64,000 nucleotides of DNA from an uncultured Actinomycetota bacterium. Its GTDB lineage: Bacteria; Actinomycetota; Actinomycetes; Mycobacteriales; Jatrophihabitantaceae. Positions 26,641 to 63,429 of the stretch are shown here, one piece after another (position 1 is the first letter of the stretch; the number at the start of each line of letters is the position of its first letter). The stretch covers positions 20,825-84,824 of the forward strand of contig CAWELM010000005.1 of NCBI GenBank assembly GCA_963809815.1. Reading direction: 5' to 3'. The translations under genes were made by a program, and so were the position numbers. The notes under the pieces are model-generated. The model worked only from the letters and a program-made list of their open reading frames with translations. It did not search any database and was not told where the DNA came from.

Positions 26641-27822
26641 ATGGCTGGATCAGTAATCGTCAATGGCGCTCGGACCCCGATCGGCCGGATGCTCGGTGCC
26701 TTCAAGGACTTCTCGGGTGCGGACCTCGGCGGCGTGGCAATCAAGGCGGCCCTGGAGCGTTCCGGGGTACGCCCGGACCAGGTGCAGTACGTCATCATGG
26801 GCCAGGTGCTGCAGGCCGGTACCGGGCAGATCCCGGCTCGTCAAGCTGCCGTCAAGGCCGGCATCTCGATGTCGGTCCCGGCACTCACCCTCAACAAGGT
26901 GTGTTTGTCCGGCCTGGACGCGATTGCGCTCGCTGATCAACTGATCCGGGTTGGTGAGTTCGACATCGTGGTAGCTGGTGGACAGGAGTCCATGACCAAT
27001 GCCCCACACCTGCTGCCCAAGTCTCGGTCCGGGTACAAGTACGGTTCCGTCGAGGTGCTCGACTCGATGGCGTACGACGGGTTGACCGACGTGTTCGACC
27101 ACGTTCCCATGGGCGAGGCCACCGATCGGTACAACGCGAAGCTCGGCATCGGCCGCCCGGCCCAGGACGAGTTCGCCGCCCAGTCCCACCAGCGCGCGGC
27201 GGAGGCAATCAAGAACGGCCTGTTCGCCGACGAGATCACGCCGGTGAGCATTCCGCAGCGCAAGGGCGACCCCCTCGAGGTGACCGAGGACGAGGGAGTC
27301 CGGGCCGACACCACAGTCGAAAGCTTGGCCCGGCTCCGGCCGGCCTTCGGCAAGGACGGCACGATCACAGCCGGGAGCGCATCGCAGATATCGGACGGTG
27401 CCGCCGCGGTCGTCGTAATGAGCAAGGACAAGGCCCAAGAGCTCGGCCTGACCTGGCTGGCCGAGATCGGCGCGCACGGCAATGTCGCCGGCCCGGACAA
27501 CTCGCTGCAATCCCAGCCGTCGAACGCGATCAACCAGGCTCTGCGCAAGGCGGGACTGACTGTGGCCGATCTCGACCTGATCGAGATCAACGAGGCGTTC
27601 GCATCCGTGGCGCTGCAGTCCATGGCCGACCTCGGCGTCGCACCAGACATCGTCAACGTCAACGGCGGGGCGATCGCTCTTGGTCACCCGATCGGCATGT
27701 CGGGCGCTCGGCTGGCGCTGACGCTTGCCCTGGAACTGAAGCGGCGAGGCGGCGGCCTCGGCGCTGCGGCGCTGTGCGGCGGTGGCGGCCAGGGAGATGC
27801 ACTCCTCCTGCGCGTCCCGTGA
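26641..27822 (+). CDS. acetyl-CoA C-acetyltransferase (thiolase II)
   Basis: Contains the active-site Cys region [26 protein letters not shown] and [11 protein letters not shown] gggagg precedes the ATG. Confidence 0.95.
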
Positions 27823-28796
27823 CCGCGGGGGTCCGCCGGACCGTCGACATCCCGGACCTCGTCGAGCGCGCACGCGCAGCTGACCCCCGCGCGATCGCGC
27901 GGCTTATCTCGCTGGTCGAGAGCGACTCGCCGGCGTTGCGTGACGTCGCACGCATATTGGTCGGGCTGGCCGGGCACGCGCAGGTGGTGGGCCTGACCGG
28001 CTCGCCCGGTGTCGGCAAGTCAACGACGACATCGGCGCTAGTGAGAGAGCTGCGGGCCGACCAGCAGCGCGTCGGCGTGCTGGCTGTCGACCCGTCTTCG
28101 CCGTTCTCGGGCGGTGCGCTACTCGGCGACCGGGTGCGCATGCAAGATCATGCGACCGACGACCGAGTGTTCATCCGCTCCATGGCGTCGCGGGGCCACC
28201 TGGGCGGCTTGTCCAGCGCGGTGCCGCAAGCGCTGCGGGTGCTGGACGCCGCCGGCTGCGACGTGATCATCGTCGAGACCGTGGGCGTCGGACAGGCGGA
28301 GGTCGACATCGCATCGCTCGCCGACACCACTGTCGTGCTTCTCGCCCCCGGTATGGGCGACGGCATCCAGGCGGCCAAGGCCGGCATTCTGGAGGTCGCC
28401 GACATCTTCGTCGTCAACAAAGCCGACCGGGACGGTGCTGATCAGGTTGTGCGTGACCTGCGATACATGCAGTCGCTAGGTGGCCGCCACTCGGTACAGG
28501 GTGCGTGGCGGCCATCCATCGTCAAGACGGTGGCGTCGCGGGGAGAGGGCATCAGCGAGCTTCGCGCCGCCATCGAGAAGCACCGCGAGTGGATGGTTCG
28601 GCACGGGGAACTTGACCGGCGTCGAATCGCGCGAGCGGCTGCGGAAATTGAGGCGATCGCCGTCGCTCACGTCCGGGATCGGATCACTGCGGTACACGGC
28701 TCGGCGGCCTTGTCGGCGTCGGCCGCCCGGGTGGTGACCGGGGAGACGGACCCGTACACAGCAGCGTCCGATCTGGTCGCCGCGCTCGCGAACTAG
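27819..28796 (+). CDS. meaB: methylmalonyl-CoA-mutase-associated G3E GTPase
   Basis: Contains P-loop [17 protein letters not shown] and VVNKADRD. The GTG at 27819 overlaps the thiolase stop (GTGA). Confidence 0.92.
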
Positions 28797-32345: not shown

Positions 32346-34088
32346 TTAGGGCGCCGTGGTGAAGCTGAAGATATCCGAGTTGCCGAAGTTCAACGGGCAT
32401 ACCTGCTGGACCGGAGGCGCCGTCGCGGCTTCGCCGTTCTGTAGTGCCTGCCGATACGCGTCGATCGCGGGGCAGTCGGCCGCGTTTCTCGCATCGTTCC
32501 AGACCGCAACGCCGTACGTTCGAGTCGCGGCGGCGTACACATAGTCGCCGAGGAACTCATCGGTTAGGGCGTTCGCACTGCTGCCGCGTGGATCTCCGGG
32601 TTCACCTCGATGCAAGGTGGTGAACGTGCCGGTCGCCCCCGAGCCGCTCGCCGAAGCGTGCATGACGACGCCGACGAGGCTGCGCGGCGTGGCCGTCGTT
32701 GGCTGGAATGGCGTTGTGAATGCGTTGTACACGACGTACACATCCGTGCCGTTGGGTGATATCGCGGGAGCGGTGTAAATGCCGCGGTCACCTGCGGCTT
32801 CGATCGCGCGCGGTGCCGCCCACGTGGCGCCGCGGTCCGTCGACTCGGTGAAGAACACATCCGGCTGAGCGAGCGTGCCGCTCACGTAACTCATCACGAT
32901 GCGGTCCGTCGCCCCCGCACCGGTGGGGGCGCCATTCGCGATGTCCACGCTCGGTGCGGGCGCCAGGTCGCTACGGGCGCCGGCGACGCCGTCGATGACC
33001 GGACTTCCCTGAACCGGATCGAATGCGCCCGGTTGGGTGACCGGCCCAGCGACCGGCCGCTGGCTCGACCACGTCTGGCCGCCATTGGCCGACTGAGACA
33101 GCAACTCGAACGACTGTCCTCCGGCCGAGGACACGGTCCCAACACCGAACACGTAGGCGGTTCCGCGACTGTCCGTGCGGATCGTGCAGCCGTCAGGTGG
33201 GTTTCGCTGGCCGTTGTTGGCCGCCGCGCTGATCTGCCGTTGCGTCCAGGTGCTGCCGCCATCGCGTGATGTAGCAACCTGAAGCGGTGCCGGGACCGCG
33301 TTGCCTTTTTCCTGACCCCGGAAAGCGGCCCAGCACACGTACACCGTGCCGAAGAACGGGCTGCTCTCAGCGTTGTCAGCCCAGACTTGGGACTTGTCGG
33401 AGAACGTGGTGTTCGACTGCCGGGATATGACGACCGGCGGCATCCAGGCGCTCTTGGCGTTGTTCGCCGCCGCGCGCACGTCGTCGGTGCGGGACACGGC
33501 GATCGCCTCGAAGCCCTTGAAGGCCGGAGCCGTGGTCGGGAAGTTGGACGTCAAGTTCGAGTAGTACAAACGGGAACCGTTGGCCCACGAGAAACCGTTC
33601 GGGCCGGGTTTCGGCCCGAAGGCGACGCCAGGATCGCCGTCTGAAACGAGCCCATTCTCGAAGTACCACGGCAATGTGCCGATCGGACCGACGCCGGGCT
33701 GGCAAGGCGAATCGGTGTTTCCGGGCGCGCCTTGGCAGCTGCGCGCGCTCCACCCGGTGTACGTCGGCTGGGTCCAACTGTGGCCGCTGTCGAAGGAGAA
33801 GTAGACGCCGGATACGCCAACTCCGGGCGTGAACGGACAGGTGTTGTCCGTCCCGGCGTTGCAGGCCTCCATGTCGACCTCTTCGTTGACGCCCGCCGCC
33901 AGCACGGTCGGATTCGACTCGTTCACCGCGACCGCCGGCTCGTTCTGTTTGTTCTGCGAGAACGGCCCCGGTGGGCTCCCTACTGTCACCAGTGCCTCGC
34001 CAGGGGATTGCGCGGTGGCGATTCCCGGTAGGGCGACGCCGACTGCGGCAACTGCAGCAATCGCCAGAATGGACAACCGTCGAAGCAT
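32346..34088 (-). CDS. secreted BNR/Asp-box repeat protein (sialidase-fold beta-propeller)
   Basis: Signal peptide MLRRLSILAIAAVAAVGVALPGIATAQ. Four SxDxGxTW Asp-boxes: SFDSGHSWTQ, SRDGGSTWTQ, SANGGQTWSS, STDRGATWAA. SD gaggag precedes the ATG at 34088. Confidence 0.8.
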   Translation of the reverse strand: MLRRLSILAIAAVAAVGVALPGIATAQSPGEALVTVGSPPGPFSQNKQNEPAVAVNESNPTVLAAGVNEEVDMEACNAGTDNTCPFTPGVGVSGVYFSFDSGHSWTQPTYTGWSARSCQGAPGNTDSPCQPGVGPIGTLPWYFENGLVSDGDPGVAFGPKPGPNGFSWANGSRLYYSNLTSNFPTTAPAFKGFEAIAVSRTDDVRAAANNAKSAWMPPVVISRQSNTTFSDKSQVWADNAESSPFFGTVYVCWAAFRGQEKGNAVPAPLQVATSRDGGSTWTQRQISAAANNGQRNPPDGCTIRTDSRGTAYVFGVGTVSSAGGQSFELLSQSANGGQTWSSQRPVAGPVTQPGAFDPVQGSPVIDGVAGARSDLAPAPSVDIANGAPTGAGATDRIVMSYVSGTLAQPDVFFTESTDRGATWAAPRAIEAAGDRGIYTAPAISPNGTDVYVVYNAFTTPFQPTTATPRSLVGVVMHASASGSGATGTFTTLHRGEPGDPRGSSANALTDEFLGDYVYAAATRTYGVAVWNDARNAADCPAIDAYRQALQNGEAATAPPVQQVCPLNFGNSDIFSFTTAP

Positions 34089-34244
34089 CGTTGCTCCTCT
34101 CGCTGCTTGGTGGGGCCGTCCAGTCGTCGGACGCAAGCTCATCGTCGGTCCGATGTGCGGCCCAGACAAGAGGTAATAACCCTCCGCTTCACCCCAGGAT
34201 CTCGGCAGAGGCTGCGACCATGAAGGTCGTGAACGGTCTTGGAG

Positions 34245-36328: not shown

Positions 36329-37996
36329 ATGGATGCCGGTGACATCGAGGCGGGCCGCGCCCGCTGGCAGCAGCGCTACGACGCGTCGGCGAAGCGCGAT
36401 CGGGACTACACGACCCTGTCCGGAACGGAGGTCGAGCCGCTTTACGGGCCGACGGGTGCCGATGACCGGTTCGAACGTATCGGCTGGCCGGGGGAGTACC
36501 CGTTCACGCGAGGAATTCACGCGACGGGCTACCGGGGCAAGCCGTGGACGATCCGGCAGTTCGCCGGGTTCGGGAACGCGGAGCAGACCAACGAGCGCTA
36601 CAAGATGATCCTCGCCGAGGGCGCCGGCGGGCTGTCGGTTGCCTTCGACATGCCCACGCTCATGGGCCGCGATTCCGACGATCCGCGCTCGCTCGGCGAG
36701 GTTGGGCACTGCGGGGTCGCGATCGATTCCGCCGCGGACATGGACGTGCTGTTCGACGGTATTGACCTCGCCGCGACGACCACCTCGATGACGATCTCCG
36801 GTCCCGCGGTACCGATCTTCTGCATGTATATGGTGGCGGCGGAACGGCAGGGCGCCGATATCAGCCAGCTGAACGGGACCCTGCAGACCGACATCTTCAA
36901 GGAGTACATCGCGCAGAAGGAGTGGATCTATCCGCCTGAGCCGCACCTGAAGCTCATCGGTGACCTGATGGAGTTCGTAGGCACCGAGGTGCCCGCTTAC
37001 AAGCCGTTGTCCGTCTCGGGTTACCACATCCGGGAGGCGGGTGCGACGGCGGCGCAGGAGCTGGCATTCACGCTGGCCGACGGATTCGGCTACGTCGAGC
37101 TGGGCCTATCCCGCGGGCTGGACCTCGAGCAGTTCGCTCCCGGCTTGTCGTTCTTCTTCGACGCCCACATCGATTTCTTCGAAGAGATAGCAAAGTTCCG
37201 CGCCGCTCGCCGCATTTGGGCGCGGTGGATGCGCGATGTGTACGGCGCTCGGACCGCACGGGCGCAGTGGCTGCGGTTCCACACCCAGACGGCTGGCGTC
37301 TCGCTGACTGCGCAGCAGCCGGACAACAACATCGTTCGCACCGCCGTCGAGGCCATGGCCGCGGTACTCGGTGGCACGAACTCGCTGCACACCAATGCCC
37401 TCGACGAGGTACTCGCGCTGCCCTCAGGGAAAGCCGCGCAGATCGCACTTCGCACCCAGCAGGTGATCGCCGAGGAAACCGGTGTGCTCAACGTGGTCGA
37501 TCCGCTCGGTGGCTCCTGGTACGTCGAAGCCGAGACGGATCGCATCGAGGCGGACGCCGAACGCATCTTCGCGCAGATCCGAGATCTCGGGTCTGACGGC
37601 ACGATGACGTCCGGGTTACTGCGGGGCATCGAGGACGGTTGGTTCATCACCGCGATCGCCGACTCTGCGTTCGCGTACCAGCAAGAGCTGGAGAAGGGCG
37701 AGAAGCGCGTGGTGGGGGTGAACACGCTCACCGGCGACGTCAGCGACGAGCTGGAGATCCTGCGGGTCTCGCATGAAGTCGAGTTGGCCCAGCGTCAGCT
37801 GGTCGCCGATCGGCGTCGCGCCCGCGACCGGGCAGCGGTGGATGTGGCTCTCACCGGGATGGTCGAGGCGGCCCGTTCCGATCGCAACATCGTCCCGCCC
37901 ATGCTCGAGGCCGTGCGCGCGGAGGCCACGCTGGGCGAGATCTGCGACGCGTTCCGGCCGCTGTGGGGCGAGTACCGGGAGCCGGTGCGCTTCTAG
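36329..37996 (+). CDS. icmA: isobutyryl-CoA mutase large subunit (no B12-binding domain)
   Basis: WTIRQFAGFGNAEQTNERYKMIL carries Phe in place of the MCM Tyr. LQTDIFKEYIAQKEW carries Gln in place of the MCM Arg. Both are ICM-type substitutions. It is close to the Streptomyces IcmA sequence as I remember it. Confidence 0.85.
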   Translation: MDAGDIEAGRARWQQRYDASAKRDRDYTTLSGTEVEPLYGPTGADDRFERIGWPGEYPFTRGIHATGYRGKPWTIRQFAGFGNAEQTNERYKMILAEGAGGLSVAFDMPTLMGRDSDDPRSLGEVGHCGVAIDSAADMDVLFDGIDLAATTTSMTISGPAVPIFCMYMVAAERQGADISQLNGTLQTDIFKEYIAQKEWIYPPEPHLKLIGDLMEFVGTEVPAYKPLSVSGYHIREAGATAAQELAFTLADGFGYVELGLSRGLDLEQFAPGLSFFFDAHIDFFEEIAKFRAARRIWARWMRDVYGARTARAQWLRFHTQTAGVSLTAQQPDNNIVRTAVEAMAAVLGGTNSLHTNALDEVLALPSGKAAQIALRTQQVIAEETGVLNVVDPLGGSWYVEAETDRIEADAERIFAQIRDLGSDGTMTSGLLRGIEDGWFITAIADSAFAYQQELEKGEKRVVGVNTLTGDVSDELEILRVSHEVELAQRQLVADRRRARDRAAVDVALTGMVEAARSDRNIVPPMLEAVRAEATLGEICDAFRPLWGEYREPVRF

Positions 37997-55244: not shown

Positions 55245-55345
55245 GCCTATAGGACGTATCACGTCGTCGCGTACGCGCCTCCAGTAGGTAACCTGGCTTG
55301 ATCTTGGCGGAGCATGATTGTGCCGACGTGGTTGGGGGAGATTTC

Positions 55346-55723
55346 GTGGTCGCCGAAGTCGATGTGTCTGTCGCGGAGGTGGGGGCCGACGCCGAGCAGC
55401 TCGAGGAACTCACCCGGGCTCTCCGGGAGGAGATCCTCACCCTTGATGTCGAGTCAGTCGTTCCCCGCTCCGGCGGCGAGGCTCCACCGGGAACGCGCGG
55501 GGTAGATGCGGCGGCTATCGGAGCGCTCGTTGTGTCCGTTGCGCCCGCGCTGGGTGCCTTAGCTCGTCTGGTCACGACCGTGGTGGACTGGCTGCGGCGC
55601 GGCGGGACCCAGCGGACCGTGCGCCTGAAGATCGGTGACGACGAGTTGGAGCTGTCCGGCGCTAGTTCGGCAATGCAGCAACAACTCGCTATGGACTGGA
55701 TCCGCGCGCACGCTCTGGAGTGA
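55346..55723 (+). CDS. EACC1-like small protein (effector-associated constant component-like)
   Basis: 125 aa from GTG 55346, with SD GGGGGAG 5 nt upstream. It has an acidic N-terminal third, a P/G linker, a hydrophobic A/V/L segment ending in DWLRR, then RTVRLKIGDDELELSG. It sits 6 nt upstream of the caspase gene. The ORF track opens at TTG 55298. Confidence 0.6.
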   Translation: MVAEVDVSVAEVGADAEQLEELTRALREEILTLDVESVVPRSGGEAPPGTRGVDAAAIGALVVSVAPALGALARLVTTVVDWLRRGGTQRTVRLKIGDDELELSGASSAMQQQLAMDWIRAHALE

Positions 55724-55729
55724 TGTGGG

Positions 55730-57943
55730 ATGGCTGGCGCGCGGCTCGCGCTTGTGGTTGCCAACGAGGACTATGCGGACGACGGTCTTCGCCGGCTGGC
55801 TGCGCCCGGTCGGGATGCTGACGCGCTGGCCGAGATCCTCGGCGATCGGTCCGTTGGCGGCTTCGACGTTCAGGTCTTGCGAAATGAGTCGGCCCAGCAG
55901 ATCAGGTTTGCGATCGAGGACTTCTTCGCCGACCGCAGTCCGACCGATCTCCTGCTCGTGCACTTCTCCTGCCATGGCGTGAAGAACGCGTCCGGGGAGT
56001 TGTTCCTAGCCGCAGCGGACACTCGCCCGACGCGGCTCGCTTCGACCGCAGTCGCCGCCGACTTCGTAAACCGTCAAATGGCTGACAGCCGCGCCCAACG
56101 CATCGCGTTGTTCCTCGATTGTTGCTACGGAGGCGCGTTTCCACGCGGCATGGTTGTGCGCGCGGCGCCAGCTGCACAGGTAGGCGACGCCTTTGCCGAT
56201 CAGCAAGATCTCGGTGGCGGGCGCGGCCGCGTGGTCGTCACAGCGTCGAGTGCGATGCAGTACGCCTTCGAGGGTGAGGAGCTCGCGCCCGACGCCGACG
56301 TCGGCACGTCGGTGTTCACCAAGGCGCTGGTCGACGGTCTCACTACCGGCGAAGCCGATCGGGACGGCGACGGGTGGGTGGGACTGACTGAGCTGTTCAG
56401 CTACGTCTCCGAACAGGTCCGGCAGGCCATACCCCAGCAAACGCCGCAGATGTGGACCTTCGGCGCGCAGGGCGACATGCATATCGCGCGGAGCCGTGTC
56501 CGTCGGGTAACACCCGCAGCGCTGCCGCCGGCCATCGTCGAGGCCATTGCCAGTCCGCTGCCGATGATGCGGTACGGCGCCGCCGACGAGCTACGGGATC
56601 GGCTGCACGGCGAGGACCTCCGCCAAGCGCTCGCCGCGTGGCAAGCGCTCGGCGCGATGGTCGAGGACGACAGCCGCAAGGTGGCCGAGACCGCCGAATC
56701 GGCGCTGGCGGCCGCCGCTTTGCGCGTTAATCCGCAGGTGCTCGACCTCGTCACCGTCGAGGATCACGCCGAGGGGGAACTCCTCCTTGACGGACCGCCA
56801 CTTGCGCTGTGTGCCACCGCGACGACCGCCGAGCGGTGGCTGCAGGTGGAACAGGACGGACCGCGGGTGCGGGTCAGTGCCGATCTTGCCGATGTGGAGC
56901 GACGTGACGGAGTAGTGGCGTTCTCCGGGCCGATCACGGAGCGGCTCGAGGTACCGGTAGTGGTCCGAACGTCGACCTCAGCCCAGCTACCCGAAGCGAA
57001 ACCGGCGACGACCTCACTGGCGCCGGCCTCAGATGTGGCCGGTCGAGCGGCGGCCGTCCCAGCAGCAGTCATCGAGCGCCAAGAGGCTCGGGAGGAGTCG
57101 GCCGGTCCGCCGGAGCGCGGGTTATTTGATGGACCGAGGCTCGGCCCGCGTGGCCTATTGCTCCTGCTCGTCGACCTGATTCTGCTCGTCCTGGGCGGGA
57201 TCATCGCCGCCGGCGGGGACCTCGATGCGTCGGTCGGCGTCATACCGGCCGCAAGCGCCGTGGTGATCGTCACCTGCCTGATCATGCGGCGCCTACCGTT
57301 TGCCCTGTCAGCCGTACTTGCGATCGCCGCGGTTGCTCTCGTGTGCGAGGCGCTCGCGCTGCCGAAGCACGAGGATTACTGGAACGCGAACGAGAACATC
57401 AGCGGGCTTCCGGCATTTGTCGTATGCGTAATCCTCTTCGCTGCGCTGACGCTGGTTGTGCTCCTGACGTACCGGTCCGGCCCCGAGGAGGGGCGCGCCG
57501 GACATGAGCTTCGGTCCACCGGGATTGTCCTGAGCATTGTGATCGCCCTGGCGGCCGTGGTCAGCGTCTCATTTGTGCATCTCATGGATCGGACATGGTG
57601 TAACCAAAATGGCGAGAGCACGTGTCGCAGCTTTGCACTCGGGTTCGAGGCCCCGGTACTGGTTGCCCACGTGATTCCGTTCGTCGCGGTGATCATCGTG
57701 CTGCTCTACGCGACGTGGACTGGGCGACGGCGGCTCGCGTCGGGTGCCGCCGTGGCGAGCGCGTTCCTCTGCGTCGTGACCGCCTGGGTCGATCTGGCCA
57801 TGTTCTATACGTTCCCGAGCGATCCCGGCACCGACGTCAACCGGCTGGTGTCCTACGCGGTTGGTGCCCTCCTCCTTGCGGCCTTTGTCGCCGGCATCTC
57901 CGCAGTGAAACCCAACTGGGTCAAGACGTTGATGACGCGTTGA
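55730..57943 (+). CDS. caspase-like (peptidase C14) protease fused to HEAT-like region, beta-rich domain and 8-TM C-terminal domain
   Basis: ALVVANEDY; catalytic His in LLLVHFSCHG (His82); catalytic Cys in IALFLDCCYGG (Cys131/132); DRDGDGWVGLTELFSYV. About 8 hydrophobic helices span aa 475-726. Confidence 0.8.
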   Translation: MAGARLALVVANEDYADDGLRRLAAPGRDADALAEILGDRSVGGFDVQVLRNESAQQIRFAIEDFFADRSPTDLLLVHFSCHGVKNASGELFLAAADTRPTRLASTAVAADFVNRQMADSRAQRIALFLDCCYGGAFPRGMVVRAAPAAQVGDAFADQQDLGGGRGRVVVTASSAMQYAFEGEELAPDADVGTSVFTKALVDGLTTGEADRDGDGWVGLTELFSYVSEQVRQAIPQQTPQMWTFGAQGDMHIARSRVRRVTPAALPPAIVEAIASPLPMMRYGAADELRDRLHGEDLRQALAAWQALGAMVEDDSRKVAETAESALAAAALRVNPQVLDLVTVEDHAEGELLLDGPPLALCATATTAERWLQVEQDGPRVRVSADLADVERRDGVVAFSGPITERLEVPVVVRTSTSAQLPEAKPATTSLAPASDVAGRAAAVPAAVIERQEAREESAGPPERGLFDGPRLGPRGLLLLLVDLILLVLGGIIAAGGDLDASVGVIPAASAVVIVTCLIMRRLPFALSAVLAIAAVALVCEALALPKHEDYWNANENISGLPAFVVCVILFAALTLVVLLTYRSGPEEGRAGHELRSTGIVLSIVIALAAVVSVSFVHLMDRTWCNQNGESTCRSFALGFEAPVLVAHVIPFVAVIIVLLYATWTGRRRLASGAAVASAFLCVVTAWVDLAMFYTFPSDPGTDVNRLVSYAVGALLLAAFVAGISAVKPNWVKTLMTR

Positions 57944-58360
57944 ATGCATCCGCTGGCCTACGGTGAAGTCGTGGCCTCGTGGGACGACGTGCGCACGATA
58001 ACGTCGACGCTGCCGGAGACGTCCGAGGGCGGCCAGTACGGCAACGCCGGTTGGCGGGTCAAGGACAAGAGCCTGGCGTGGGAGCGACCTTTGCGCCGCT
58101 CCGACCTCGAGGCGCTCGGACCGGACGCACCCGGCGGCCCGATTCTCGCCGTACGCGTGGCCGATATCGGCGTCAAGGACGCGCTCGTCGCTGACGACCC
58201 GGACGTGTACTTCACGACGCCGCACTTCAACGGATACCCCGCCGTCCTTGTCTGTCTGGACCGGATCGACGTGGCCGAGCTTCGGGAATTGCTCGTGGAG
58301 GCATGGCTGGCCCGCGCGCCGAAGCGGCTGGCCCAGGCCTACCTCGACGCGCAGCCGTGA
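57944..58360 (+). CDS. MmcQ/YjbR-family protein
   Basis: WDDVRTITSTLPETSEG..YGNAGWRVKDKSLAWERP...TTPHFNGYPAVLV follows the YjbR pattern as I recall it. The ATG directly abuts the caspase stop (TGAATG). Confidence 0.65.
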   Translation: MHPLAYGEVVASWDDVRTITSTLPETSEGGQYGNAGWRVKDKSLAWERPLRRSDLEALGPDAPGGPILAVRVADIGVKDALVADDPDVYFTTPHFNGYPAVLVCLDRIDVAELRELLVEAWLARAPKRLAQAYLDAQP

Positions 58361-60020: not shown

Positions 60021-61268
60021 TTAGCTTCCGCTGGGGAGTACCACGAGAGGTGGTCGACCGTTGGCCGCGGCATGCACCATGGCCGACTCGAATGGGCGGC
60101 CCAGGCCCGGTCGCCACGTCAACAGCCGAATAGTCCGGCCGTTGTTCAACGCGAGGACCAGCCAGCCATTGTCCGAGAAGGCCAAGCCGGGCACGGGCGC
60201 GATCGGCAACTCGACACCCGGAACGATCGTGATGGAGCCGGATGATGTCGCGAGTACGGCGACGTCCGTGGGCGCCGCGTCGGACGGATAACGGCTGTCT
60301 TGTGCGGCGCGCTGCAACGTGAAGGCAACCCGTCCTCCGTCCGGGCTCACGACCCCCCGTGCGGTCGGCATGCGACCTGGCGGGAGCCGAATCGACCGGG
60401 CCGGCCCGGGCGGTACGAGTGGCTGGAAGACCAGAGTGCAGGCGATCCGCACGGCATTCGGGCACATCGGAAACCAGAGGACCCCGGTTGGCGTCACGGC
60501 AATGACCTGTCCTCGGCCCAGGCGCGTCGACGCGTCGTCGCCATTCCGCAGATCACGCATTTGGACGGTTGGCAGATCCTCGCCGGCGAGGGGACCGACT
60601 TGTAGCTGCTCGCCCACGTAGTGCGACCCGATGATGCCCAGCGGGGTAAAACCACGAGGCGTCTGCACCGTGTTGGCATCATCCAGCGAGCGCAGTGTGC
60701 CGGGAATGGCGTTCCCGCCGCCGAGCACGGCCCAGGCCTGCCCGGTCACCGAAATCACGTTGCGCAGCAACCCGGTCGTCGGCACGGCTGCGGGCGCGCC
60801 GGTACCGACCCGGACCAGCCCGAGGTTCGTCAAAGGATCACAGCCCGAAAGGACGGCGTAGGTCGGGGACGCCCCCCGCAGCTGGGTGACCGATTGCCCA
60901 CTCTTCGGGTCGACGCCCGGCACGACGGTCGCGGTTCCGCTGTCGAGGTCGACCTTACGGAGCTGGTCACCGCCGAGGAGCACCCGAAGCTCGGTCGCGT
61001 TGGGTGGCATCGGCGCGCTCAACACGATGGGGAGCAGGCCCGATCCGCACACACCGTCAGCGCTTGGCCATTGCGCGACATGCCGTCCGGCGGAGGCGGA
61101 TGGGTCCGGGCGGGCCGGAGCTCGATCCGCGCCGAGGCCGGCACCACCGGCGAGCTGTGCACCGACGATGGCGAGCGCAGCGACCACCGCGCCGCCGGCC
61201 AGCCATTTCATCAGCGGCGGCAGACGCGAGGGACCGGCCAGTTCCTCCTCGCCGTCCACGCCATCCAT
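60021..61268 (-). CDS. hypothetical membrane-anchored extracytoplasmic protein (beta-rich, propeller-like)
   Basis: N-terminal TM anchor WLAGGAVVAALAIVGAQLAG followed by a Gly/Val/Thr/Pro-rich beta-type sequence. The C-terminal VSPDGGRVAF resembles TolB/WD40-like blades. ATG 61268 was chosen to avoid overlap with glgX. Confidence 0.5.
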   Translation of the reverse strand: MDGVDGEEELAGPSRLPPLMKWLAGGAVVAALAIVGAQLAGGAGLGADRAPARPDPSASAGRHVAQWPSADGVCGSGLLPIVLSAPMPPNATELRVLLGGDQLRKVDLDSGTATVVPGVDPKSGQSVTQLRGASPTYAVLSGCDPLTNLGLVRVGTGAPAAVPTTGLLRNVISVTGQAWAVLGGGNAIPGTLRSLDDANTVQTPRGFTPLGIIGSHYVGEQLQVGPLAGEDLPTVQMRDLRNGDDASTRLGRGQVIAVTPTGVLWFPMCPNAVRIACTLVFQPLVPPGPARSIRLPPGRMPTARGVVSPDGGRVAFTLQRAAQDSRYPSDAAPTDVAVLATSSGSITIVPGVELPIAPVPGLAFSDNGWLVLALNNGRTIRLLTWRPGLGRPFESAMVHAAANGRPPLVVLPSGS

Positions 61269-61305
61269 GAGAGCACAACCGCGAAGGGACGGCGGAGGCT
61301 CTAAG

Positions 61306-63429
61306 TCAGGCTCGAACCACCCGCAGCAGCTGCACGCTCCGGGCCACAAGATGCATCGGTCGTCCGGCCCGGATGCGCGACCCGCCGTCGATCCTGCCCG
61401 ACACATAGCGGGTATCGATGATGGTCTCGTACTCGCTGGCCCAGGGCGGCCCCGGCAGGAAGAAGCGCACCGGATCGTCTCCGGAGTGCAACAGGATCAG
61501 GTAGGAGTGGTCGACGAGCTGCTCGCCGCGGCTGCCGCGGTGCCGTAGTCCACGACCGTCCAGGTACATCCCAATCGTGCACAGTCCGTTGTCGAACCAG
61601 TCGTCGGCTATGAGCTCGCGTCCGGCCGGATGAAACCAAGCCAGGTCCTTGCTGCCATCCGCGCCGAGGACCGGGCGACCCTCGAAGAACGCCCGTTGGC
61701 GAAGCACCGGCGAGGAGCGTCGGAGGGTCACTAACCGCCGCGCGAGCTCCAGCAGGTCAGCAGCCTCCGGCGTTGCCGACCAGTCCAGCCACGAGGTGGG
61801 GTTGTCCTGGCAATACGCGTTGTTGTTTCCACCCTGCGTGCGCCATCGCTCGTCGCCGGCAAGCAGCATCGGTGCACCGGTGGAGAGCAACAGCGTGCAG
61901 AGAAAGTTTCGGGCCTGACGCAACCGCAGTGTCCTGACGTCGGCATCGCTGGTCTCACCCTCGACGCCACAGTTGTAGGAGAGGTTGTCGTTCGTCCCGT
62001 CGCGGTTGTGCTCGCCGTTGGCCTCGTTGCGCTTGCGCTCGTATGTGACCAGATCCCGCAACGTGAACCCGTCGTGTGATGTCACGAAGTTGATCGATGC
62101 GAACGGCAGCCGCCCGTCGTCGCCATACAGATCAGAGGACCCGGACAGTCGCGTGGCCAGCTCGCGTACGCCAGCGCCCTGGGCCCAGAACGAGCGAACG
62201 GTGTCGCGATATCGCCCGTTCCACTCCGTCCAACGGGCCGGGAACTGACCGACCTGGTAGCCACCGTCACCGACGTCCCACGGTTCGGCAATGAGCTTGA
62301 CCTGGCTGAGCACCGGGTCTTGGTGGATGGTGTCGAAGAACGACGAGAGCTTGTCGACATCATGCAGCGACCGGGCCAGCGCAGACGCGAGGTCGAACCG
62401 GAAGCCGTCGACGTGCATCTCGGTGGCCCAGTAGCGGAGGGAGTCCATGACCATCGCGAGGACGGATGGCGTGCGCACGTCCAGGGTGTTGCCGCAGCCG
62501 GTGTAGTCGGCGTAACGAGAAGGATCACCCGGTGCCAGCCGGTAGTACGCGGCGTTGTCGATTCCGCGGAAGGCCAGGATCGGTCCGTCCGGTGCGCCCT
62601 CGGCGGTGTGGTTGTAGACCACATCGAGAATGACCTCGATCCCGGCCGCATGGAGCGCCCGAACCATCGACTTGAACTCCCGAACCTGGTTGCCCCGGCG
62701 CGATGAATATGCCTCGTGCGGCGCGAAGAAGCCCAGCGTGTTGTAACCCCAGTAGTTGGGCAGGCCCCGGCGCTGGACCGCCGGCTCGGTGACGAAGTGC
62801 TGGATGGGAAGCAGCTCTACCGCGGTCACTCCGAGTGAGCGCAGGTAGTCAATGGCCACCGGCTGGGCGAGTCCGGCGTATGTGCCGCGGATTTCGGGAG
62901 GAATGTCGGGGTTGGTCATCGTGAAGCCGCGTACGTGCAGCTCGTAGATGACGGTGTCCTCCCAAGGAATGTCGGGCTTCCGGTCGCCGCCCCAGGGAAA
63001 CGCGCCGTGCACGATGACCGACCTCGGGACGTACGGTGCCGAGTCCTCGTCACCTCCGTAGACAGCGGGGTGGTCGACCAATTCCCCTTCGAGCGCGCGC
63101 GCATACGGGTCGATCAGCAGCTTGTTCGGGTTGTGCCGCAATCCTCGGCTCGGGTCGTTCAGGCCGTGCACCCGGAACCCGTACCGCTGCCCGGGACCTA
63201 CGCCGGGTAGGTACCCGTGCCAGACGTGGTAGGTCCGCTCATCCAGCGCTATCCGGGTCTCCACCCCGTCGGGGTCGAACAGGCACACGTCAACGCCCGT
63301 TGCCGACCGGCTCCACAGCGCGAAGTTCGCTCCGTCGCCGTCCCACTCCGCTCCGGACGGGTACGGCTTTCCCGGCCAGGCACGATCGAGCCGTGCCCCG
63401 AGCGCGGCGGTCAGGTCTTCTGGGCGCAT
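61306..63429 (-). CDS. glgX: glycogen debranching enzyme
   Basis: Contains [35 protein letters not shown] and [13 protein letters not shown]. Confidence 0.96.

Follow-up and report, generated by a model that had tools for sequence, protein, structure and literature searches.

An EACC1-caspase gene pair with a variable eight-helix membrane tail in an uncultured actinobacterium

We analysed a stretch of 64,000 nucleotides (nt) from contig CAWELM010000005.1 of an uncultured Actinomycetota bacterium, called the window below, in which two adjacent genes had been proposed to form a minimal conflict or programmed-death module. The first gene (55346-55723, + strand) encodes a 125-residue protein of the EACC1 family (short for effector-associated constant component 1), predicted to be a latent pore-forming effector. 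This assignment draws on its match to Pfam PF19953, its identity to a Kribbella EACC1, its ratio of nonsynonymous to synonymous substitution rates (dN/dS), and its pairing with the second gene. The second gene (55730-57943, + strand), identified by its open reading frame (ORF) and profile matches, encodes a 737-residue caspase-family protease with a membrane tail. Only 6 nt separate the two. The original prediction had described this ORF pair and its spacing, the protease motifs ALVVANEDY, HFSCHG, LDCCYGG, and DGDGWVGLTELFSYV, the codon for His82 (55973-55975), and those for Cys131 and Cys132 (56120-56125). All of these were confirmed in the sequence, and the exact 737-residue protein was also found on 20 metagenome contigs.

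The small ORF could begin at a TTG at 55298, giving 141 residues, or at a GTG at 55346, giving 125 residues, and both forms end at 55723 on the + strand. Reading the sequence, we found a Shine-Dalgarno-like GGGGGAG (55334-55340, + strand) 5 nt upstream of the GTG. In an alignment, the N termini of EACC1 homologues (MVAEVDV or MGAEVQV) coincided with the 125-residue start. Therefore, we prefer the GTG at 55346 over the TTG.

Profile searches assigned both proteins to families. The protease matched Pfam Peptidase_C14 (PF00656) over residues 5 to 242 with 77.3 bits (E = 1.8e-21; cutoff, 21.4), and it matched NCBIfam NF047832, "caspase, EACC1-associated type," with 160 bits (curated cutoff, 140). 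The 125-residue protein scored 23.2 bits against PF19953 (E = 6.9e-5), and the 141-residue form scored 22.4 bits. Therefore, the C14 match lies well above its cutoff, whereas the direct EACC1 match falls 0.4 bit under the gathering score of 23.6. The small protein also shares 52% identity, in an alignment that spans 98% of its length (E = 7e-26), with a Kribbella catacumbae protein annotated as "effector-associated constant component EACC1." Further PF19953-positive matches occurred among its homologues, and 18 of 23 aligned homologues matched PF19953 at an E value of ≤0.01. The proposal of an EACC1 gene beside a catalytically intact caspase-family protease is upheld by the NF047832 and C14 scores and by the identity to the Kribbella protein. 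The pair is an ordinary member of the described two-gene EACC1-caspase system, already covered by a public hidden Markov model (HMM), and it is not the novel minimal system that had been suggested.

The system was defined from the outset as two genes. According to Kaur et al. 2020 (PMC7159879), System 4 pairs a 5' EACC1 gene with a 3' gene whose product has a caspase domain at its N terminus. About 50 different domains can take the C-terminal position behind it, and a STAND nucleoside triphosphatase (NTPase) is only one of these. Transmembrane (TM) helices are present in at least 33% of the caspase proteins, and the system is prevalent in actinobacteria. The window pair resembles System 4 in gene order, in its constant pair, in a variable TM-bearing C terminus, in its actinobacterial host, and in that an NTPase is not obligatory. 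The difference lies only in the C-terminal module, which in the window has eight TM segments and no detectable relatives outside a narrow uncultured lineage. Therefore, the term "stripped-down version," applied by the original prediction, does not fit.

We scanned 185,579 species genomes, found 511 relatives, and examined the best 80 of the 511 loci. Most are from Kribbella, whose species are the closest named relatives, with further loci in Cellulomonas, Streptomyces, Nocardiopsis, Marmoricola, and several metagenome-assembled genomes (MAGs). For 79 of the 80 loci, an HMM built from EACC1 homologues placed an EACC1 ORF directly 5' of the caspase gene, with spacing that ranged from 1 to 11 nt to a short overlap. 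When neighbouring ORFs within 10 kb were clustered, only the caspase gene, ORFs antisense to it, and EACC1 were common to 20 taxon groups, and the remainder was lineage-specific synteny. The long antisense ORFs (56400-57300, − strand; for example, 56591-56977) recur at all loci in this clustering. They are not genes but shadow ORFs of the kind usual in high-GC DNA.

No conserved NTPase neighbour was found in 81 loci. ORFs of at least 450 residues with a Walker A motif occurred at only 17 of the 81, and they were heterogeneous. The 737-residue protein itself has no P-loop motif and no match to an NTPase family in Pfam or NCBIfam, and no NTPase gene lies within 27 kb of the pair. The earlier statement that no NTPase is fused to the protease or encoded beside the pair is therefore correct. 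The NTPase-free, TM-bearing form is the rule among the related loci examined, and the remark that EACC1 genes typically sit beside STAND-type NTPases is untrue for this clade. The original prediction had also stated that the window holds no STAND, AAA, GTPase, vWA, or TIR gene. STAND, vWA, and TIR genes are indeed absent from the window, but its P-loop/Walker A proteins are the ATP synthase alpha and beta subunits, an ABC ATPase, and a MeaB/ArgK-type GTPase, so the statement was wrong about GTPases. The error is harmless. The G3E GTPase (27774-28796, + strand; Walker A GSPGVGKS; PF03308 in the matching contig) adjoins a thiolase gene and is the housekeeping partner of methylmalonyl-CoA mutase (36329-37996), about 27 kb from the pair.

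The caspase domain occupies residues 1 to 250 of the protease (55730-56479, + strand). In an alignment of 105 homologues, His82, Asp130 (56117-56119), Cys131, and the catalytic Cys132 (56123-56125) were invariant. Therefore, the predicted His/Cys dyad is conserved. The domain has a dN/dS of 0.04 to 0.14. An initial AlphaFold2 model from a shallow 10-sequence alignment was poor, with a predicted local distance difference test (pLDDT) score of 51, and the gain from the 105-sequence alignment was confined to the caspase and middle modules. In the improved model, the caspase domain has a pLDDT of about 60 to 85. A loop after the catalytic Cys (residues 134-164; 56130-56221, + strand) is below 50, and it carries invariant FPRGMVVR (FPRG..VR) and GRGR motifs. 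It is a possible Arg-directed autoprocessing or activation site.

Only the first ~250 residues of the protease were described in the original prediction, which called the module sensor-less or self-sensing, a view that the rest of the protein does not support. The C-terminal extension beyond the caspase domain is 490 residues long, two-thirds of the protein, and it comprises a helical/immunoglobulin-like (Ig-like) module, a linker, and eight TM segments. The first of these is a post-caspase constant module (56513-56974, + strand) with four helices (residues ~262-330) and an Ig-like beta-sandwich (residues 331-415), modelled with a pLDDT of 90 to 98. Residues 250 to 480 had no Pfam match at an E value of ≤10. 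An exhaustive HMMER search with residues 250 to 737 returned 296 cluster representatives, nearly all matching the helical/Ig stretch only. These matches fall at residues ~250 to 450 of the representatives' own caspase proteins. Among the 86 full-length representatives with both caspase motifs and this module, 84 are predicted to contain one or more TM segments, and in 53 of them the number is three or more. Because it recurs in TM-bearing caspase proteins in this way, the helical/Ig unit is a second constant part of a membrane-tethered clade. It is not named in the text of Kaur et al. that we consulted (PMC7159879).

The best Foldseek matches of the model were human MALT1 caspase-Ig3 structures (E value of ~4e-9, ~450 aligned columns), followed by caspases-11, -1, -4, -3, and -7. 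The MALT1 match has a root mean square deviation of ~18 Å, and therefore the relative placement of the domains is not comparable. In sequence searches of PDB chains, the caspase domain alone was unmatched, and the 105-sequence profile returned only noise from TM and low-complexity regions (MCT8 and rhodopsins; E values of ≥0.07). Like MALT1, the pair's protease has an Ig-like domain behind its caspase domain. With MALT1 and the meta- and orthocaspases it shares an acidic residue two positions ahead of the catalytic Cys and a predicted preference for Arg or Lys at P1. It differs from MALT1 in having no detectable sequence similarity to any PDB chain, in lacking death and Ig1-2 domains, and in being membrane tethered. 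The resemblance seen in the model is one of architecture, not of membership in the paracaspase family. A constant caspase plus helical/Ig unit that recalls MALT1 offers a directly testable handle.

The mechanism of one homologous pair was reported in November 2025 by Evans et al. (bioRxiv 10.1101/2025.11.14.688446), so the statement that EACC1 proteins lack experimental characterisation is outdated. In the Ktedonobacter racemifer pair EACC1-KrAvs12, the caspase cuts EACC1 (KrEACC1) into two fragments, and mutation of KrAvs12 Cys152 abolishes both the cleavage and the toxicity. The C-terminal fragment alone is toxic, whereas the N-terminal fragment is non-toxic and was modelled as inhibitory. 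Only cleaved EACC1 permeabilised liposomes, the cleaved form killed cells, and the C-terminal strands were proposed to mediate ring assembly. The cut was assigned to Asp49, a site published as "putative," and shifting it by a few residues kept the toxicity. Evans et al. drew a parallel with bacterial gasdermins, in which a neighbouring protease likewise strips an inhibitory segment from a small pro-toxin that then forms pores. EACC1 differs from gasdermins in being unrelated in sequence and size and in that its inhibitory piece is N-terminal. Because this type of system has been described, is annotated by NCBI, and has been understood mechanistically in one homologue since late 2025, the find as such is ordinary.

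The window pair shares several features with that of K. racemifer. Both small proteins match PF19953, the window one just under the gathering score, and have an R-x-x-D before the hydrophobic helix, and Cys132 of the window protease aligns with KrAvs12 Cys152, each being the second, catalytic Cys of an LDCC motif. By analogy, an inhibitory N-terminal piece would be removed and the C-terminal piece would form pores in both. The proteases differ beyond the caspase domain. The sensor of KrAvs12 is its cytoplasmic STAND ATPase, which detects tail-connector proteins of phages, whereas the window protease has an eight-TM module and no NTPase.

Conservation in EACC1 was counted in 80 distinct sequences from genome loci, 79 of which are ungapped at the linker and helix-start positions. 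The protein is under purifying selection (dN/dS, 0.08-0.09). Its acidic N-terminal alpha/beta region (residues 1-45; 55346-55480, + strand), delimited by alignment, is predicted to be autoinhibitory by analogy with KrEACC1. Next comes the linker motif A-P-P-G-T-R51-G (55481-55501, + strand). There, P47 is found in 79 of 79 sequences and G49 in 77 of 79, and position 51 is basic in all 79 (Arg in 69, Lys in 10). The linker leads into a Gly/Ala-rich hydrophobic helix (residues 55-81) and then an invariant W82-L-R-R85 (together 55508-55600, + strand), with G59 and L61 in 79 of 79, W82 in 80 of 80, and R85 in 79 of 80. Kaur et al. (PMC7159879) described a patch of small residues in the TM helix of EACC1, and the window helix matches this description. 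The segment AAAIGALVVSVAPALGALARLVTTVV appears to form one hydrophobic helix with a small/Gly patch, and predicted beta-like or helical segments that are conserved flank it on both sides. The C-terminal part, with beta-strands and a helix (residues 86-125, TVRLKIGDDELELSG...QQQL...H; 55601-55720, + strand), has D99 in 79 of 80, E102 in 78 of 80, and H122 in 78 of 80. This C-terminal stretch was aligned by hhalign with KrEACC1 residues 62 to 106.

The linker motif is a predicted recognition and cleavage site. Asp130 of the protease is two residues before the catalytic Cys, the position at which caspase-3 has its specificity-pocket residue, Gln161. Cleavage after Arg or Lys holds for every characterised member of family C14 outside the caspases (PMC5756287). 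Because of this specificity, Asp130, and the conservation of P47, G49, and a basic residue at position 51, we infer that EACC1 is cleaved after Arg51, between APPGTR and GVDAAAIG. Such a cut would yield fragments of ~5.4 and 7.8 kDa, as computed from the sequence. The alternative is Asp54 (55505-55507), the positional counterpart of KrEACC1 Asp49, but an Asp is found there in only 10 of 80 sequences. Therefore, although the P1 residue proposed for KrEACC1 is Asp49, conservation points to Arg51 in the window EACC1. KrEACC1 has an Arg, Arg46, three residues before the proposed Asp49. If correct, the predicted Arg-specific motif P-x-G-x-[R/K], present across ~80 genomes, would revise the Asp site proposed for KrEACC1.

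A different division of labour was proposed for System 4 by Kaur et al. (PMC7159879). Applied to this pair, EACC1 would be a membrane-inserted sensor that activates the caspase when it receives a signal, and the caspase would cut itself, for example in a disordered linker, and so release the eight-helix module as a channel or pore effector. The protease does contain a long, protease-accessible, Pro/Ala-rich disordered linker (residues 416-470; 56975-57139, + strand; pLDDT of <50), and there are invariant Arg-rich motifs in the loop after its catalytic Cys. Polymorphic effectors are also found in other conflict systems. However, the linker is the least conserved part of the protease (45-51% identity between close relatives; dN/dS, 0.5-0.76), and the conserved P-x-G-x-[R/K] sits in EACC1 instead. 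An integral eight-TM domain is already embedded in the membrane, so a cut in a cytoplasmic linker would not obviously release it. Furthermore, experiments with the homologous pair identified EACC1 as the substrate and the toxic pore-former (bioRxiv 10.1101/2025.11.14.688446). Overall, we consider this division of labour distinctly unlikely for the pair.

The C-terminal module (residues 471-737; 57140-57940, + strand) has eight hydrophobic segments by hydropathy, with both termini predicted to be inside from hydropathy, charge, and loop conservation. Its charges obey the positive-inside rule: three of four inside loops have a net charge of +2 or +3, the fourth is neutral, and the outside loops have a net negative charge. 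A comparison of eleven close alleles gave a conservation of 91 to 100% for three of the four cytoplasmic loops and 74% for the fourth, against only 60 to 62% for outer loops 3 and 4. Outer loop 3 (residues 619-641) retains a pair of Cys residues, W-C-x8-C. All parts of the protease are under purifying selection, with a dN/dS of 0.25 to 0.34 for the TM part and 0.19 to 0.34 across the middle and TM parts. The module had a pLDDT of 50 to 65, also with the 105-sequence alignment, and therefore we make no claim about its fold. This variable extension is the obvious candidate for the sensor of the system, or else its anchor.

The eight-helix module has few relatives. It has no significant similarity to Pfam, NCBIfam, or PDB sequences, and residues 481 to 737 gave only insignificant matches to membrane DUFs (E values of ≥0.5). 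It matched ~16 clusters among 5.8 billion proteins and ~6 representatives among 1.84 billion. Orthologues from Kribbella are 71 to 77% identical to the window protein in the caspase domain but about 15% identical in the TM region, and hhalign gave a probability of 0.5% for a relationship between the window-type module and the Kribbella-type module of ~8 TM segments. We therefore do not regard the two types as one recognisable sensor-domain family. Homologues at the genome loci carry 3 to 17 predicted TM segments. Four orthologues from Kribbella and Pseudonocardiaceae (L008, L018, L031, and L047) are ~1,000 to 1,120 residues long with ~16 predicted TM segments, double the usual eight, which suggests a duplicated or extended membrane module. 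Relatives from Streptomyces and Nocardiopsis (L073-L087) are ~600 to 740 residues long with only 3 to 5 predicted TM segments, and at these loci the EACC1 stop and the caspase start share 4 nt. They look like another membrane module on the same constant part.

We also compared the window with a contig from another sample that has the same gene order (L088). Over ~12 kb outside the block described here, the two are 94 to 99% identical in nucleotide sequence. Between ~56780, inside the beta-sandwich, and the protease stop codon (57943), identity falls to 69 to 76%, and mismatches rise from ~1 per 50 nt to ~13 to 15 per 50 nt. Mismatch density, identity, and the synonymous substitution rate (dS) together delimit an allelic, recombinant block (~56780-57950, + strand). 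The dS is 0.66 in the linker and TM parts and 0.04 in EACC1, 0.08 in the caspase domain, 0.08 in the YjbR gene, and 0.17 in the decarboxylase gene. Therefore, the block was replaced by recombination and is not just under relaxed constraint. In another allele (P0006), residues 1 to 415 match the window protein at 99 to 100% identity, but the TM module does so at only 66%. Where the TM module has been replaced, identity stays at 99% in EACC1 and at 98% in the caspase domain. EACC1 does not vary in step with the TM allele (99% versus 66%), which fits a role for EACC1 together with the constant part of the protease. A local diversification mechanism was sought in the window, but no diversity-generating retroelement template, repeat, or paralogue was found there. 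The fast-swapping eight-helix tail, which probably acts as the sensor, is the sole unusual feature of this pair, and its natural swaps in near-identical genomes are ready-made chimeras for probing what the module senses.

The allele swaps bear on whether the pair has a sensor at all. In a minimal sensor-less or self-sensing module, the protease would be constitutively poised, or EACC1 would do the sensing, and the C-terminal tail would be a mere membrane anchor. The protease does lack any recognisable sensor domain, an NTPase included, KrAvs12 showed constitutive activity in vitro (bioRxiv 10.1101/2025.11.14.688446), and anchoring alone would bring the protease together with a membrane-directed substrate. 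However, a constitutively active protease beside a pore-forming pro-toxin would be lethal. Also, the 490-residue tail is under purifying selection, as its dN/dS values indicate, and both its cytoplasmic loops and an extracytoplasmic pair of Cys residues are conserved. Exchange of the tail as an allelic cassette, with the rest held constant, is the pattern expected of a specificity determinant and not of a passive anchor. Overall, we consider a passive tail very unlikely. A bolder possibility is that the module serves as an immune receptor that faces the envelope. A phage, a competitor's toxin, or envelope damage would be detected at the cell surface by its variable outer loops, one of them held by the conserved Cys pair. 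These would signal inward through the MALT1-like caspase-Ig unit to a gasdermin-like pore, and receptor alleles would be swapped by recombination to track enemies. If so, bacteria would possess a "pyroptosis" pathway that runs outside-in and needs no NTPase, but in this full form the idea is doubtful, and we offer it tentatively.

We favour a less specific reading, to which we assign a probability of roughly 0.62. The pair is probably a self-contained, two-gene, membrane-associated EACC1-caspase module for conflict or cell suicide, in which a membrane cue activates the protease, the protease cleaves EACC1, and EACC1 forms pores. This retains the original idea of a conflict or programmed-death module. 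EACC1 (125 residues) would be made as an autoinhibited monomer, as homology to KrEACC1 suggests. As its sequence and the model show, the cytoplasmic His82/Cys132 protease is tied through the helical/Ig module and the flexible linker to the eight-helix membrane module. A cue at that variable module might turn the protease on, and it could be a perturbation of the envelope or membrane, or else something from a phage or competitor that acts at the membrane. The simplest route to activation would be the pairing of two caspase domains. The protease would then cut EACC1 in the P-P-G-T-R51-G linker, before the final Gly, with Arg at P1 as in meta-, para-, and orthocaspases. By analogy with the Ktedonobacter homologue, the freed C-terminal fragment (the hydrophobic helix, WLRR, and two beta-strands) would oligomerise into membrane pores, and the cell would be killed or arrested. 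The membrane module would stand where Avs/STAND sensors sit in other EACC1 systems, and an NTPase would not be needed.

However, several points weigh against this reading. For this pair, the analysis shows the family assignments, the conserved pairing, the intact and conserved dyad, the architecture, and the recombinant variable module. We infer the cleavage and its site, the pore formation, and above all the nature of the trigger, partly from a homologue that is distant. Pairwise, KrEACC1 is 28% identical to the window EACC1 over 74 residues, hhalign aligned only the C-terminal 45 residues, and KrEACC1 did not match an HMM built from window EACC1 homologues, so that PF19953 is the sole link. 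The direct PF19953 score of the small protein is itself 0.4 bit short of the threshold. In addition, Evans et al. put the KrEACC1 cut at Asp49, not at an Arg, and the protease they studied is fused to an Avs ATPase and not to a membrane domain (bioRxiv 10.1101/2025.11.14.688446). A sensing role for the TM module would look the same as a pure anchoring role in our models, which have low confidence there. PADLOC (PADLOC-DB v2) recognised no system, with a weak generic "caspase" match (32.6 bits) and none for EACC1, although this library dates from 2023 and predates the EACC1 experiments. Finally, the pair sits amid genes for glycogen and amine metabolism and not in a defence island.

Those neighbours are housekeeping genes. 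On the 5' side of the pair are GlgE and GlgP (glycogen/trehalose metabolism), a luciferase-like oxidoreductase, a PNPOx-like protein, and an Orn/Lys/Arg decarboxylase. On the 3' side are YjbR, an alpha/beta hydrolase, a short-chain dehydrogenase, and a GlgB-like amylase. The remainder of the window is also of housekeeping character, with an ATP synthase operon, methylmalonyl-CoA mutase, thiolase, and acyl-CoA dehydrogenase. The pair has a GC content at third codon positions of 0.74 to 0.78, and its flanking genes have 0.80 to 0.86. This difference is too weak to be used as evidence of horizontal insertion or foreign origin and is a faint hint at most.

This setting raises the possibility that the same biochemistry serves another role, in a chromosomal circuit for stress response, developmental cell death, or membrane quality in filamentous or aggregating actinobacteria. 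The metabolic-gene synteny is stable in relatives down to ~80% identity, and there is no defence island, no PADLOC system, and no phage homologue (none in 50,697 phage records). EACC1 systems are strongly tied to a multicellular habit (650 of 671 organisms), and Evans et al. raised stress-response roles for DnaK-fused versions (bioRxiv 10.1101/2025.11.14.688446). Two observations are more typical of conflict systems, namely, the swapping of putative-sensor alleles between near-identical strains and the presence of homologues on plasmids. The latter, on plasmids or megaplasmids of Nonomuraea gerenzanensis and Streptomyces spp. (records H1-H7), are 40 to 55% identical in the caspase domain. The sole experimentally tested homologue also responds to a phage protein (bioRxiv 10.1101/2025.11.14.688446). 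Therefore, we regard a purely developmental or stress-related role as unlikely. The value of the pair is as a clean natural example of the large membrane-tethered branch of EACC1-caspase systems.

We also considered whether the YjbR gene adds a third part to the system. Its ATG follows the caspase stop codon without a gap (TGA/ATG, 57941-57946), and in relatives of the lineage (L088, L089, and L007) the gap is 0 to 36 nt. However, this adjacency is kept only within the lineage and is absent from Kribbella and other genera. Therefore, YjbR probably does not belong to the system.

Within the species collection, the genome closest to the window is an uncultured Actinomycetota MAG (MFD02199.bin.2.108; L030). 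Its caspase gene has a 2-nt deletion and several 1-nt deletions (window positions ~56463 and 57157-57378), which break the ORF at 285 residues. Its decarboxylase gene likewise carries single-base indels, and these changes may be assembly errors rather than signs of pseudogenisation.

Two other ORFs of the window are recorded here. A 607-residue protein (32346-34169, − strand) with weak matches to BNR/sialidase repeats (BNR_2, E = 5e-6) is encoded between MarR and LD-carboxypeptidase genes. In a closely related contig (L090) these two genes are only ~365 nt apart, and therefore the gene between them is strain variable. An ORF at 60021-61406 (− strand; 415-461 residues) lies between the short-chain dehydrogenase and GlgB-like genes. 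It was unmatched in Pfam at an E value of ≤10 and is conserved in related contigs.

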